Below, one piece after another: positions 51,221-64,000 of a stretch of 64,000 nt of DNA. Numbering within the stretch: position 1 is the stretch's first letter; the number at the start of each line of letters is the position of its first letter. Under the pieces are notes generated by a model, which did no database searches, had not been told where the DNA came from, and was given only the letters and a program-made list of their open reading frames with translations. The position numbers and the translations under genes were made by a program. Source of the stretch: a phage. Where the stretch lies: assembly GCA_017864995.1 (NCBI GenBank), contig GCA_017864995.1_4097.1. One strand, written 5' to 3'.

Positions 51221-52345
51221 TTAATTATCTAAGCCACCAATTACACTGAACAGTGTGGTAACGTCTGAACTATTATCTATGTAAGTTCTTCTACCAACAT
51301 AATATAGTTGTCCTTTTGCTTGAATAAAAGTTACGGTCCCTGTATTGAATGTTATAATATCATTGTATGTAATGTCAGGTGGTAGTGCTGCTGATAACGC
51401 AGTAACTTTACTTAATGCAGCACTAGTACTACCATTTATACCAGCAGCAATACTACCAGTACCATAGAACTTATTATCTTTACCAATGAATACGTTGGCT
51501 GATGCTTGTGTAGCTGATGTTATTGCCTTACCAATTTGGAATGCGGTTCCTATGGTGTATGGTGTGCTCCTGGCTGCGTCTATGCTTTGTGTATATCCAT
51601 CCCCTAGCTGACCATTAACTTTGTCACCACATGAGTATAAAGTACCATTGAGGCTGTATATGATCCCACGGTTAGAGAAGCTAACAGCTTCTGCATTAGT
51701 CCATACTGGAGCGGTGTATGAGTTTACACGACTAGCAGTAGTTCCTAGTCCTAGTATACCATATGTGTTATCACCACATCCAAACCATTGTCCAGTACTG
51801 TTTTGATAGAACACTGAACGTTCTGTTGATTCCATGCGTACAGCATCCACAGCACCACTTTTAACGAACGAAGTGGATGAGGATGTAGTACCAGTACCCA
51901 ATGCACCATAAGTGTTTGTACCAATCGCATAGATTGATCCTAGTGGTGTCATCACACGTATACAGTTATATCCCAATTGAACTTTACATTCAAATAGGTT
52001 GTCCCATATTTCAGGAACAGCAGAAAATAAATTTGTAATTTCGAACCATGATGTTGTCGAACCAGTTAATCCTATACTGCTTTTGTTTCCTAAAATGAAA
52101 ACAGTTTTGTCCTTCTTAATTATCCATGATGATAGGAAACCTATCTCACAGCTATGAACATTTGATTCTATTTGGGTAATATAATACTTAACTGTGTTAT
52201 CACCCATGAATGCCGCAGCACCGGATGCAAAAAGGTTTCCAGTTTGTTTATTTAAAATGTAGTTATTGTTTCCATATACACTAACATCATAAGAACTTTC
52301 TTGTTTTTCGTTCCCATAATCAAATAACAATACGAAAGGTAACAT
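51221..52345 (-). CDS. RCC1-like repeat (beta-propeller) protein, paralog 1
   Basis: 374 aa; begins MLPFVLLFDYGN; repeats of G-x-N-x2-G-x-LG-x-G type (YSCGDKVNGQLGDG, FGCGDNTYGILGLG). Confidence 0.8.
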   Translation of the reverse strand: MLPFVLLFDYGNEKQESSYDVSVYGNNNYILNKQTGNLFASGAAAFMGDNTVKYYITQIESNVHSCEIGFLSSWIIKKDKTVFILGNKSSIGLTGSTTSWFEITNLFSAVPEIWDNLFECKVQLGYNCIRVMTPLGSIYAIGTNTYGALGTGTTSSSTSFVKSGAVDAVRMESTERSVFYQNSTGQWFGCGDNTYGILGLGTTASRVNSYTAPVWTNAEAVSFSNRGIIYSLNGTLYSCGDKVNGQLGDGYTQSIDAARSTPYTIGTAFQIGKAITSATQASANVFIGKDNKFYGTGSIAAGINGSTSAALSKVTALSAALPPDITYNDIITFNTGTVTFIQAKGQLYYVGRRTYIDNSSDVTTLFSVIGGLDN

Positions 52346-52422
52346 GATAAAATCTCCTTGTGTTATACTTTATTTAATCATTTTATAATGTACAATTTTA
52401 CAGCGATTTAATTGAGGTACTC

Positions 52423-53073
52423 ATGAATAAAAGAAGTAAGTTCTATCAAGAATATTTCACTAAACAGAAACGATTCACAAAAAAATACTTTACATCACCC
52501 CACCGACCAGTTGCAAGTTACAAACGTCCTAATACTAACTATCTTACTGGTGGCAAGTTTAGTGCAAAGTTCGAATTACTTATGCGTGAAAAGAATATCA
52601 AGATGCATTACGCAGAGACGAGAAAAAACTCATCAATTATTTGCTCTGATTTTCTTGAGTACGGTTGCTTAACTTATAAATTCAATGATGTATATTTGTA
52701 TATTGATGTTGATTGTAACAGTACTCGTATGTTTGAGATTTCAATTCACCCAAATCACAACCGTTATATAAACATTAACTTGATTGATAAAGTACTGATT
52801 GGTATATCTAGTACTGATGGTGGTGGATTTGAATTTATTGCTTCAAAATATGATGAAGATTTCGTACTTTACCCAGTACTTGATGATGTGAAAGATATAC
52901 TCAATTCATTAAAAGGAAGTCAATACAAATTATCTGAAGAACAGCTATTTCAGTACTCACTTATTCATGATGATATCGAGATATACTTAGAGTGTGCGAG
53001 AATCTTGGAGTATCTTTATAATGAATTAACAACAACTGGTAAAGTGACTGCATTCACATTATATAATATGTAA
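52423..53073 (+). CDS. hypothetical protein, F-Q motif family
   Basis: 216 aa ORF embedded in the RCC1 array on the opposite strand; contains LSEEQLFQYSLIHDD. Confidence 0.65.
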   Translation: MNKRSKFYQEYFTKQKRFTKKYFTSPHRPVASYKRPNTNYLTGGKFSAKFELLMREKNIKMHYAETRKNSSIICSDFLEYGCLTYKFNDVYLYIDVDCNSTRMFEISIHPNHNRYININLIDKVLIGISSTDGGGFEFIASKYDEDFVLYPVLDDVKDILNSLKGSQYKLSEEQLFQYSLIHDDIEIYLECARILEYLYNELTTTGKVTAFTLYNM

Positions 53074-53075
53074 AA

Positions 53076-53104
53076 GAAAAGCCAGTACATTGTACTGGCT
53101 TTAT
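53076..53104. terminator. bidirectional rho-independent terminator
   Basis: A-run, hairpin gccagtac-att-gtactggc, T-run. Confidence 0.7.
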
Positions 53105-61925: not shown

Positions 61926-61995
61926 ATTTCCTCCTTTATTCATTATACTATATTTAATCAAAAAGAATGCCAGTACTTGAGTACTGGCATTGTGT
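61926..61995 (-). promoter_or_regulatory. conserved intergenic cassette
   Basis: Hairpin tgccagtac-ttga-gtactggca (61968-61989) plus conserved box. Confidence 0.6.
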
Positions 61996-63175
61996 TTATC
62001 TAAAAGGAACGCACTTTTTGAATTTATATATATATCCAGTCTCACCTTGTTCAGTAAAATACCCAGGGTTTCCAGTCCAGTATAAATCCTCACCTATACT
62101 AACTACCGATACTGAACCATTACCAATCGTACCAAACCACTCAACATGTGATAAGTCAACACTATCATCAAAGAATTCTATTGGTAATATTGAACCATAA
62201 TTCCCAGAGACTGCGTTGCGGCCTAAACCAGCACCATTAGAATTATATCCCTTACCATTCGTATTAATAATGTTAGTACTGGATTTTATTGCATTAACAT
62301 AGGATACTGGTGAAAGTTTATCGAATGAATTTGCTGTTATATCGGTATAGGGATTGGTAGTAAATGATGACCTTATTATACCAGTATTTTCAGAACCACC
62401 TATAGTCAACTGTGTGTTCCAACCAGCCGCCATTAAAGACAAAGCAGATGTACTACTTTGAACAATCAAACGTGTTACCCATCGTGTAGCTTGTACTGCA
62501 ATTACATGAGAACTACCAAGATTCAATGCAGTAAAACTAGTAATAGGCTTATTATCACCGGTTCCTAATTGATAAAAAGTATTCTCACCACAACGATAAT
62601 ATATACCATCTTTTATATAGTGAAAGTTTCTGCTCATTTCACTAGATGCAATTGCAGATACACTAGTGTCAATTAAGAGTGGAGATGTAATTGGTGCAGT
62701 TGCTGTACCCAATTCACTTGCACCATTCATGCCTATACCATATAACTGCCCGTCACTTGTTAGTATTAACATGGAATTGTTAGTTCCGGTTGATGATGTT
62801 ATTTTTATATCTTTTATTGAACTCGGAGAAATAAATCCAAAATATGATTCACAACGAGTCCATGTTGAAACCGAAGATGATATACCAAAAACTGAGTTAG
62901 TCCCACTATAGTACAATTCCCCTTGTTTTGTTCTAATTATAGTACAATATAGAGAACTCCAGAAATCATCAACACTATAAGGACATAAAACCCATCTATC
63001 CAAAAAAGATGAACCAGTAACTCCCATTTTTGCTGATTGGTTTCCGTCCACGCATATATAATGACCCATCACTGTATAATACGCTTATTGAATTTTCATC
63101 ACTATTAATTTTAACAACAGTATCTTTGACAGGGGCAATATTCCCATAATCAAATAATCTAACAAAAGGTAACAT
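61996..63175 (-). pseudogene. RCC1-like paralog 9 interrupted by a +1 frameshift near its 5' end
   Basis: Conserved start MLPFVRLFDYGN at 63173-63175 is in a frame that terminates after about 50 codons; main 358-aa ORF is one frame over, junction at ttatatatgcgtgg (about 63055). Confidence 0.55.
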
Positions 63176-63245
63176 ATATTCCTCCTTTATTCATTATACT
63201 ATATTTAATAAAAAAGAAAAGCCAGTACTGAGTACTGGCATTATG
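63176..63245 (-). promoter_or_regulatory. conserved intergenic cassette
   Basis: Hairpin gccagtac-tga-gtactggc (63221-63239) plus conserved box. Confidence 0.6.
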
Positions 63246-64000
63246 TTATTTTGGTAAATCAATTTTAGTAAAGACTGCAACATCTGCACTTGCACCTGGA
63301 ATGGCGTAATACGATCCAGTACTATATACATTCCCGTCTTTGGTTAATAATGATGTTAATCCGTCACTAAAAGCAACATCACTAATCTCACTAACTTCTA
63401 CAGGTAATTGTAAATTAGCAGCACTATAGATAGCACCCGTTTGAGAATTGTTTAATCCCAAACCACGGTTTCCCCCAATACCTTTCTGATATGCACTAGT
63501 TAATATAATTTGCGTAGCCGTGCTTGTTGCCTCTGAATTTGTCATAAACAAAGGTGAATTATTAGGTAAAGTACTTACAGGAACTGCTTTGAATGTAGTT
63601 GAATCTGAACTAAGAAAGTTTGGAGTTGTACCACATGTGAAATATGATGTACCATTATAGTAATTGAGTGTATGTCCACCAATAGCTGCATCTATTACAC
63701 CAGAACTACGCAGTCCCCAAATGTTAACTTGTGTTCTGTTCCCTGTGCCATGTAATCCACGGTCATTCCACCCTGAACTATATAACTTATTATCTATGCT
63801 AATATACATACTATCATTAGGAGTAGACATAACTTTACGCACATTAGAAGCACATAGTGTTAATGTATATATTGATGAAGAACCAATCCCCAATACACCA
63901 CGGTATCCATTAGCCCCAGCACCATAGAGTACTGAACTTGAACTGAGTACAAATATTACACCACCATTGCATACAATATTAGCAATTTGATTCACAGGAA
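63246..64000 (-). CDS. RCC1-like repeat protein, paralog 10 (5' end beyond window)
   Basis: ORF open to the window edge; RCC1-like G/S/N/T-rich repeats; N-terminus not visible. Confidence 0.7.
   Translation of the reverse strand, partial: PVNQIANIVCNGGVIFVLSSSSVLYGAGANGYRGVLGIGSSSIYTLTLCASNVRKVMSTPNDSMYISIDNKLYSSGWNDRGLHGTGNRTQVNIWGLRSSGVIDAAIGGHTLNYYNGTSYFTCGTTPNFLSSDSTTFKAVPVSTLPNNSPLFMTNSEATSTATQIILTSAYQKGIGGNRGLGLNNSQTGAIYSAANLQLPVEVSEISDVAFSDGLTSLLTKDGNVYSTGSYYAIPGASADVAVFTKIDLPK

Follow-up and report, generated by a model that had tools for sequence, protein, structure and literature searches.

The window analysed here is a 64,000-nt stretch of phage DNA (contig GCA_017864995.1_4097.1 of NCBI GenBank assembly GCA_017864995.1). 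Its source is an Asteriusvirus, a 121Q/PBECO4-like and Rak2-related jumbo coliphage of ~350 kb, and the genome is, strictly speaking, outside the T4-type phages. Between position 51221 and the window end, the minus strand holds ten paralogous genes for RCC1-like proteins that begin with a common 12-residue peptide (hereafter, the tag). Nine of the genes start within the window and one is cut by the window edge. The list of open reading frames (ORFs) and a scan for ATG-Leu-Pro-Phe place the nine starts at 63175, 61925, 60694, 59432, 58210, 56921, 55731, 54311 and 52345 on the minus strand; the tenth paralog is 63246-64000, with its 5' end outside the window. Scanning of both strands found no ATG-Leu-Pro-Phe start on the plus strand or elsewhere in the 64 kb, and the relaxed pattern M-[LIV]-P-F revealed no further tagged genes in the window. 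The intact proteins are 374-449 aa in length, and two paralogs, those starting at 63175 and 56921, are interrupted. An earlier note on this DNA had pictured about 11 back-to-back genes of 375-450 aa with a common N-terminus. The array, the size range and the common N-terminus were borne out: the bodies of the paralogs are 16-33% identical pairwise, whereas residues 1-12 are nearly invariant. The count was not, there being ten genes of which two are broken, nor was the uninterrupted run, given the two interrupted genes and a plus-strand ORF (52423-53073) inside the array. GC skew changes sign at ~51 kb, matching the strand switch, and the array neighbours are small non-structural genes, away from the structural module. 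These ten genes make up the proximal portion of a hypervariable array of 13-17 genes.

Multi-copy RCC1-like genes have been described before. [quoted passage not shown] In databases the relatives bear the names "DNA condensation protein", "regulator of chromosome condensation" or "HERC1", and the category given to PHROG 4219 is DNA/RNA (nucleotide) metabolism. Both the multi-copy array and its virion association are already published; the arrangement is therefore not an unrecognised one, as the earlier note had it. What appears to be new is the common tag, its occurrence on different folds and in several genera, its association with the variable virion proteome, the cassette that carries the tag in frame, and the shuffling of gene types. 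The tag strings were not found in published papers by a literature text search.

Seven of the ten paralogs reach a curated Pfam cut-off for RCC1, six with PF00415 (21.7-bit cut-off) and one with PF13540 (22-bit cut-off). The RCC1-like domain model PF25390 matches nine of the ten with E-values from 1e-10 to 9e-32, all of them below the 150-bit full-domain cut-off of that model. Paralog 3 (54382-55731) is a divergent member, recognised by hhalign (probability 99.9%, E 6e-32) and by PHROG 4219 (E 1e-15). The AlphaFold2 model of paralog 6 (58281-59432) has a predicted local distance difference test (pLDDT) score of 90.6 and a predicted template modelling (pTM) score of 0.88, and it contains about 27-28 strands, as seven four-stranded blades need. 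Its top Foldseek matches are all RCC1-like domains (RLDs), namely those of UVR8, RPGR, HERC2 and RCC1, with E-values down to 6.5e-20, TM-scores of about 0.76 (0.63-0.77 over the top matches) and identities of 15-19% to the structural matches. The model of paralog 3 is partial, with a pLDDT of 61.6 and blades confident to about residue 290 (about five blades). The earlier reading of these proteins as RCC1-type propellers is thus confirmed by profile matches and predicted structure, the paralogs being modelled as RCC1-like seven-bladed beta-propellers of ~40 kDa. They share the seven blades and the RCC1 repeat signature with RLD propellers such as RCC1, UVR8, RPGR, the HERC2 RLDs and BLIP-II, and differ from these in being phage-encoded and virion-associated and in carrying the additional N-terminal tag. 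The viral fold search also returned long RCC1-containing proteins (629-1077 aa) of uncultured Caudovirales.

The tag has the consensus M-L-P-F-x-R-[ML]-x-x-Y-G-N, in which M1, L2, P3, F4, Y10 and N12 are invariant in the window. The window tags fall in two classes, MLPFARMVKYGN and MLPFVRLFDYGN. In the models of both paralog 6 and paralog 3, residues 1-17/20 have low pLDDT and no secondary structure, and are therefore predicted to form a flexible tail, not a blade strand. A role as the velcro strand that closes the propeller was rejected, since residues 1-20 are unstructured in both models and the tag is also found on non-propeller proteins. Among 90 non-redundant tagged ORFs, Pro3 is encoded by CCT in all 35 Asteriusvirus copies but by CCA in 45 of the 55 copies from other genera, and Tyr10, Gly11 and Asn12 are encoded by several codons. 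Within the window, the tags of paralogs 1 and 3 differ at four nucleotides, three of the differences being synonymous, and paralog 3 retains the tag despite the absence of an upstream cassette (see below). Distant orthologs, 35-67% identical, likewise retain M-[LI]-P-F-A-R-x-x-x-Y-G-N. The tag is thus shown to be a separate protein-level module, conserved as amino acids rather than as DNA. A T4-like (L/I)-x-E protease site is not conserved at the tag end, Glu9 being present in none of the 35 Asteriusvirus tags and in 11 of the 55 others.

The tag is not confined to propellers. In phage GAP32 it heads both GAP32_001, which is RCC1-like, and GAP32_002, an unrelated non-RCC1 protein of 211 aa; in Xanthomonas phage XbC2 it heads an RCC1+Kelch protein and Kelch proteins; and in Yersinia phage fHe-Yen9-04 it heads five consecutive genes (g527c-531c). 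In the Pectobacterium phage CBB, a Mimasvirus, all seven genes CBB_548-554 are tagged, as are CBB_536, CBB_537 and the scattered single genes CBB_144 and CBB_247. This CBB array lies at the syntenic locus and is without RCC1-like genes. Asteriusvirus arrays themselves also hold tagged Kelch (298-301 aa) and glycine-rich (245 aa) genes. In IMG/VR, scanning with degenerate codons located the tag on ~55 ORFs in about ten jumbo-phage contigs, and the clustered cargos comprise propellers, LamG-like proteins, a GAP32_002-like family, a 168-aa family, glycine-rich proteins and others, the LamG matches ranging from weak to good. Matches outside the jumbo contigs were dismissed as chance, since they were short ORFs or internal Met codons that lacked a ribosome-binding site. 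A search of 1.84 billion representative proteins with a tag profile, which extended into the start of blade 1 and for that reason retrieved mainly proteins of RCC1 size, contributed little on cargo diversity except for a tag-plus-Kelch protein (P0069); seven long repeat proteins from this search were discarded as false positives. With tblastn, a tag query of 22 residues gave 509 matches, spread over 62 of the 50,697 phage records searched. All but one of these 62 are jumbo phages of 310-386 kb from Enterobacterales or Xanthomonas, and the hosts are Escherichia, Salmonella, Erwinia, Yersinia, Pectobacterium, Serratia, Cronobacter, Klebsiella and Xanthomonas. The tag-bearing genera are Asteriusvirus, Mimasvirus, Eneladusvirus and relatives, and the same search of the 50,697 records gave no match in RaK2, K64-1 or PA5oct.

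Previous proteomic studies link the tagged proteins to the virion. Virion mass spectrometry of phAPEC6 lists eight propellers, gp003, 005, 006, 007, 009, 010, 549 and 551 (PMC7247149). Three of them were mapped to window genes: gp005 and gp006 are orthologs of the genes starting at 59432 and 58210 (93% identity each), and gp007 (269 aa, 30 kDa) is the ortholog of the truncated gene starting at 56921 (80% identity). GAP32_001 has also been found in virions (PMC5259590). In the CBB virion proteome (PMC5259590), 9 of 11 tagged proteins are present against 55 of 554 proteins overall (one-sided Fisher p = 2.4e-8), the 11 having been collected by scanning the whole CBB genome with the strict tag pattern, so that this denominator may be incomplete. 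Coverage of the tagged CBB proteins reaches 51%. In addition, the six CBB proteins that were detected by mass spectrometry and have no GAP32 homologs (144, 247, 536, 537, 551 and 552) are all tagged. The truncated type D gene deserves attention. Its ORF has 264-269 codons in all six genomes that carry type D, and the ratio of nonsynonymous to synonymous substitution rates (dN/dS) is 0.24 at a dS of 0.46, that is, the gene is under purifying selection. The presence of this partial protein in the virion, together with purifying selection, implies that incorporation needs no complete propeller; such a partial propeller might fold by oligomerising, for example. The interpretation in the earlier note is supported in part, and its central idea of a docking or targeting handle more strongly than could be known from the sequence alone: the tag is a portable peptide with conserved residues and is predicted to be unstructured, it heads unrelated folds in other genera, and tagged proteins are enriched in virion proteomes. 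Very probably the tag is a virion-incorporation signal that bears interchangeable binding domains.

Outside the coding regions, a near-identical block of ~75 nt precedes seven of the nine genes. Its order is a hairpin (GCCAGTACT-loop-AGTACTGGC), a T-run, GATTAAATATAGTATAATGAATAAAGGAGG and the ATG. The hairpin of the copy at 59475-59500 has an RNA free energy of -16.1 kcal/mol (z = -5). Eight copies of the hairpin motif are present in the window against none expected, and every one of them lies within the array; 22 terminator-like sites were found against 6.9 expected. The TAAATA of the block resembles both the T4 late TATAAATA and the ATAAATA late promoter predicted for CBB and GAP32. Of the 92 other window ORFs, only 3 have TAAATA upstream; two of these belong to virion structural protein families, one with the sequence CTATAAATATAGT. 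A sigma-70 promoter in the block was considered and rejected, as no pair of elements is properly spaced and sigma-70-like sites are as frequent as expected (82 found versus 83.7). Each gene is thus an autonomous cassette that consists of a terminator hairpin, a T4-late-like promoter, a ribosome-binding site and the tag codons, and the motif suggests that the tagged genes would be expressed late. Two plus-strand genes for highly charged virion structural proteins, 37719-38102 and 38974-40461 (PHROG 16530 and 20398), have a T4-late-like TATAAATA upstream and carry no tag; their composition is opposite to that of the tagged proteins, and they are possibly head-internal components.

The cassettes recall the promoter-early stem-loop (PeSL) elements of T4-like phages (Arbiol 2010, PMC2839356; Comeau 2014, PMC4122927). 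In both systems a terminator hairpin plus promoter is repeated between variable genes, and breakpoints of indels and swaps lie at the repeats. However, the promoter of the present array is late-like (TAAATA) and not an early sigma-70 promoter, and the repeat includes the ribosome-binding site and reaches into the first 12 codons. Since the repeat extends into the coding region, every recombinant stays in frame with the tag.

Comparison with relatives revealed extensive shuffling. The flanking 2.9 kb is 99.1-99.6% identical at full coverage in the relatives, whereas the array is covered to at most 42% in any of them. Relative to phage Ecwhy_1, a 5-kb segment of four genes is replaced by one gene and one extra gene is present. 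The breakpoints fall at 53078-53108, where there is a hairpin (53078-53102), and at 58169-58210 and 59396-59501, in a cassette or tag; the last of these intervals aligns to two places in Ecwhy_1, at the indel breakpoint. The gene order C-E-F-A is common to the window and Ecwhy_1. When gene types were defined at ≥80% nucleotide identity, eight genomes contained 33 types, with 9-16 per genome in partly different order. Meanwhile, the dN/dS between orthologs is 0.07-0.43 for every type that could be tested. The low ratios imply that conserved genes are gained, lost and reordered, and that this, rather than rapid sequence change within a gene, is the source of the diversity. Between fEgEco12 and Ecwhy_1, the greatest differences are reported to be in two array genes. 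The features of the array and its border are collected in Table 1.

Table 1. Features of the tagged-gene array and its border, listed from the window end towards the plus-strand membrane-protein genes.
Feature	Position	Strand	Remarks
Paralog 10 (type C), 3' 250 codons only; tag beyond the window	63246-64000	-	PF25390 E 1.5e-10
Intergenic cassette: terminator-like hairpin 63221-63239, T-run, late-promoter-like ATTAAATATAGTATAAT, ribosome-binding site GGAGG	63176-63245	-	
Paralog 9 (type E), tag MLPFVRLFDYGN at 63140-63175	61996-63175	-	Frameshift after ~43 codons; long ORF resumes at 63072
Intergenic cassette, hairpin 61966-61991	61926-61995	-	
Paralog 8 (type F), 384 aa, tag MLPFVRMFDYGN	60771-61925	-	
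Intergenic cassette, hairpin 60738-60765	60695-60770	-	
Paralog 7 (type A), 396 aa, tag MLPFVRLFDYGN	59504-60694	-	Ortholog dN/dS 0.20-0.27
Intergenic cassette, hairpin 59475-59500	59433-59503	-	RNA free energy -16.1 kcal/mol, z -5
Paralog 6 (type B), 383 aa, tag MLPFARMVKYGN; modelled member	58281-59432	-	
Intergenic cassette, hairpin 58253-58276	58211-58280	-	
Paralog 5 (type K), 393 aa, tag MLPFTRMVKYGN	57029-58210	-	
Intergenic cassette, hairpin 56967-56985 with one stem mismatch	56922-57028	-	
Paralog 4 (type D), truncated, 264 aa, tag MLPFARMVKYGN	56127-56921	-	
Out-of-frame 3' remainder of paralog 4 (last blades)	55742-56126	-	Ends immediately ahead of the paralog 3 ribosome-binding site
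Paralog 3 (type L), 449 aa, tag MLPFVRLFDYGN, most divergent	54382-55731	-	dN/dS 0.16
Intergenic cassette, hairpin 54357-54375	54312-54381	-	
Paralog 2 (type S), 401 aa, tag MLPFARMVKYAN	53106-54311	-	
Bidirectional terminator-like hairpin	53078-53102	.	Left breakpoint of the 5-kb segment differing from Ecwhy_1
Conserved 216-aa ORF inside the array, PHROG 34359	52423-53073	+	No tag, not a propeller
Degenerate cassette upstream of paralog 1	52346-52422	-	Retains GATTAAATAAAGTATAA, no hairpin
Paralog 1 (type G), 374 aa, tag MLPFVLLFDYGN	51221-52345	-	
Bidirectional terminator-like hairpin between the plus-strand membrane-protein genes and the array	51190-51216	.	

Several entries of the table need comment. 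The tag of paralog 10 is beyond the window, and its full-length relative P0044 bears the tag. The split of paralog 9 is also annotated in Ecwhy_1 (genes 521/522), and the type E ORF of phage Turkey5 has 392 codons. Programmed frameshifting was considered for paralogs 4 and 9 and rejected, as there is no slippery run and paralog 4 has stops in both frames within ~15 nt. Upstream of paralog 3 there is a ribosome-binding site only, without hairpin or promoter cassette. The 216-aa ORF on the plus strand has a very basic N-terminus, lies between bidirectional hairpins and is kept in Ecwhy_1, WPEC3, BF17 and SHEFM2K. In the phAPEC6 record MK817115, at least three tagged ORFs (starts 2434, 6063 and 7325) are unannotated, gp004 overlaps the tagged ORF at 7325 and looks like a wrong-frame call, and the ends of the record duplicate part of the array (gp001 = gp551).

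Next to the array, positions 48744-51183 of the plus strand hold seven back-to-back paralogous genes for hydrophobic membrane proteins of 104-123 aa (PHROG 19454, 27618 and others). A like run of membrane genes, CBB_539-547, lies directly upstream of the minus-strand tagged array in CBB, and the pairing of membrane array and tagged array is therefore conserved across genera. Upstream of the membrane array, a 256-aa ORF (47906-48676, plus strand; PHROG 1250) contains the Walker A motif GAPGVGKT, and its relatives are annotated as ATP-binding protein or FleQ-like regulator. Past the far end of the array, SHEFM2K (24285-29000) and Ecwhy_1 (~29900-47000) carry a long run of similar genes of ~60 aa (PHROG 11711).

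Taken as a whole, the observations are best explained, in our view with somewhat better than even chances, by a set of low-copy late virion proteins that are docked on the outside of the particle by the tag and whose propellers serve as accessory adhesins. The tag, not the propeller, would be the common denominator of small all-beta binding domains as diverse as RCC1, Kelch, LamG-like (jelly-roll) and glycine-rich ones. The tagged proteins would be made late and become low-copy components of the particle, where the tag would dock them at one common external site; the capsid/tail fibres ("hairs") or a decoration protein are candidates for this site. The swappable propellers may act as accessory adhesins for ligands on the host surface or in the environment. 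The ~110-nt cassette repeat would provide the homology for gene gain, loss and reordering, and this would be why phages that are ~99% identical in the compared flank hold different propeller sets.

An external position is suggested by several observations. The paralogs have ~6% D+E, ~6% K+R and ~42% STNGQ, with pI values of 5.3-9.0. The tail fibres of PVP-SE1 are close to this (D+E 7.5-9.3, K+R 3.0-6.4, STNGQ 40.5-43.9), unlike the window background (D+E 13.6, K+R 12.2, STNGQ 26.1). The fibre-like composition is found in all tagged proteins of two genera and is unlike that of the two charged untagged virion proteins of the window. Gene 40 of PVP-SE1 lies at 12070-13884 on the minus strand. In its product, which is annotated as a "tail protein", a PHROG 4219 propeller (E 1.5e-40) is fused to a Big_2 immunoglobulin (Ig)-like domain, and the gene is at the distal end of the tail-fibre cluster of this Enterobacterales phage; unlike the genes of the array, it is a single gene without the MLPF tag, and the protein has a C-terminal extension. 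In addition, several of the nearest bacterial homologs carry Big_2, a type IX secretion system (T9SS) sorting tail or CHB_HEX_C, which we take to be secretion- or surface-associated. Virions of 121Q and phAPEC6 bear long fibres on capsid and tail (phAPEC6: PMC7247149). The tagged proteins possibly attach to such hair-like fibres. That the hairs of CBB and phAPEC6 are themselves built of tagged proteins is unlikely, the hairs being ~119 nm long and the cargos small and globular; moreover, no hairs have been reported for GAP32, which has tagged proteins. Overall, we judge the chances of external display of the tagged cargo to be about even or marginally better.

By analogy, this picture has precedents. 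In adenovirus, the conserved FNPVYPY of the fibre N-terminal tail docks into the penton base; here too a short N-terminal peptide anchors a variable receptor-binding protein at an invariant capsid site, and this is the analogy we favour, although adenovirus infects eukaryotes and has one gene, not an array, for its fibre, which is trimeric. The tailspikes of CBA120 and the motif shared by RaK2 gp526/gp529 are similar in that a conserved N-terminus attaches variable binders, several per virion. However, those anchors are folded domains of ~50-150 residues on trimeric tailspikes encoded in the tail module, not a 12-residue peptide. The conserved N-terminal motif of RaK2 differs from the tag and is a tailspike anchor.

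Several points weigh against the external, tag-docked reading. The link between tag and virion is correlative, and that the tag itself causes incorporation is suggested by this link. The late promoter is called from its motif, and the external location is argued indirectly, from composition and from PVP-SE1. The array is outside the tail/baseplate module and the models are single-chain globular proteins, not trimeric fibres, which does not agree with a place in the receptor-binding/tail-fibre class. GAP32 has tagged proteins but no reported hairs, so that hairs are not simply tagged proteins. The virion list of phAPEC6 includes thymidylate synthase, a RecA-like protein, a single-stranded-DNA-binding protein and a topoisomerase subunit as well, and in view of such clearly non-structural proteins, co-purification of abundant late proteins is possible. 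The tagged proteins could then be soluble, and the tag could serve stability, act as an N-terminal degradation signal or bind a partner independent of assembly. The phAPEC6 propellers were indeed detected with 1-5 peptides and 3-17% coverage only. Nevertheless, tagged proteins are enriched in independent studies of three phages, the detection rate and coverage in CBB are high, and the untagged plus-strand ORF inside the array (phAPEC6 gp011c) is absent from the phAPEC6 list, and we regard co-purification as quite improbable. Still smaller is the chance, which we consider very slight, that the first 12 codons belong to a regulatory or translation-initiation cassette that gene conversion keeps uniform, and encode a functionless peptide. 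Conservation of the ~75 nt upstream equals that of the tag codons, these codons are almost identical within this genome even at third positions, and recombination breakpoints lie inside the block, all of which could be expected of a DNA-level by-product. Yet the peptide is kept across genera despite differing upstream DNA and codons (CCT versus CCA), on operon-internal genes without a cassette (paralog 3 and the Yersinia phage genes) and on the scattered single genes CBB_144 and CBB_247, and the paralog 1 tag has three synonymous changes among its four differences. Finally, to the annotated role in condensing or organising phage or host DNA we give hardly any credence. Beyond the database names and the PHROG 4219 category, this role was raised as a speculation in the phAPEC6 paper (PMC7247149). 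The proteins owe this name to their fold family alone, the paralogs are not basic (see pI and K+R above) and their composition is unlike that of DNA-binding proteins, the same tag and locus hold Kelch, LamG and glycine-rich cargos in related phages, and CBB packages a similar genome without any RCC1-like gene (PMC5259590). RCC1 itself acts as the guanine-nucleotide exchange factor for Ran, a protein that bacteria are not known to have.

The most serious competitor comes from phage T4, in which the internal proteins IPI, IPII and IPIII and Alt carry a capsid targeting sequence (CTS). By the same logic, the tag might bind the prohead scaffold or core, so that the cargos would be packed in the head, maybe in the inner body, and be ejected to neutralise host defence or other host proteins. 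CTS packaging is the closest established T4-related mechanism for a short N-terminal peptide on diverse virion proteins, and this too weighs against an external site. The T4 peptide resembles the tag in position and length (~10-12 aa), it heads unrelated and fast-varying virion proteins encoded in hyperplastic regions, and it is transferable. RCC1-like propellers can also be very tight protein inhibitors, as BLIP-II demonstrates, and hypervariability among near-identical phages fits an arms race with host defences as well. Moreover, Rak2-like phages have T4-type head-assembly genes, including the prohead core scaffold and protease, plus a gp55-like sigma factor, and phAPEC6 has an inner body for which its authors suggested the RCC1-like proteins (PMC7247149). 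However, judged against the generally known CTS sequence and cleavage rule of T4, the tag has no sequence similarity to the CTS, and no conserved (L/I)-x-E site closes it. The T4 internal proteins are small and highly charged, whereas the tagged cargos are low-charge, Ser/Thr/Asn/Gly-rich all-beta proteins of 22-75 kDa with fibre-like composition, and the arrays, with 13-17 genes, are far larger. The cargo families (LamG, Kelch, RCC1 and one gene annotated BNR) are typical extracellular binding modules, and the same propeller family is found in the tail-module protein of PVP-SE1. Packaging inside the head is therefore, in our opinion, a real but rather unlikely alternative.

Returning to the tag-docked virion proteins, a more general statement is tempting, and we make it tentatively, with slightly less than even confidence: MLPF-x5-YGN may be a general transferable virion-loading signal of the ~350-kb jumbo clade, with one docking site and a library of swappable modules (at least 33 types in eight coliphage genomes), and independent of the T4 CTS in sequence. 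If this is true, these phages possess a natural plug-and-play display system, which would be a new handle for jumbo-phage engineering; like the T4 CTS, the 12-residue peptide could be a means of loading or displaying foreign proteins on very large phages. An annotation that was derived from a name and has spread over dozens of jumbo-phage genomes would be replaced by a testable function, and tagged proteins would account for much of the variable, unexplained virion proteome of jumbo phages. Meanwhile, cassette recombination would be a way in which near-identical therapeutic coliphages come to differ in their probable binding proteins, and this may bear on host range and on the choice of phages for therapy.

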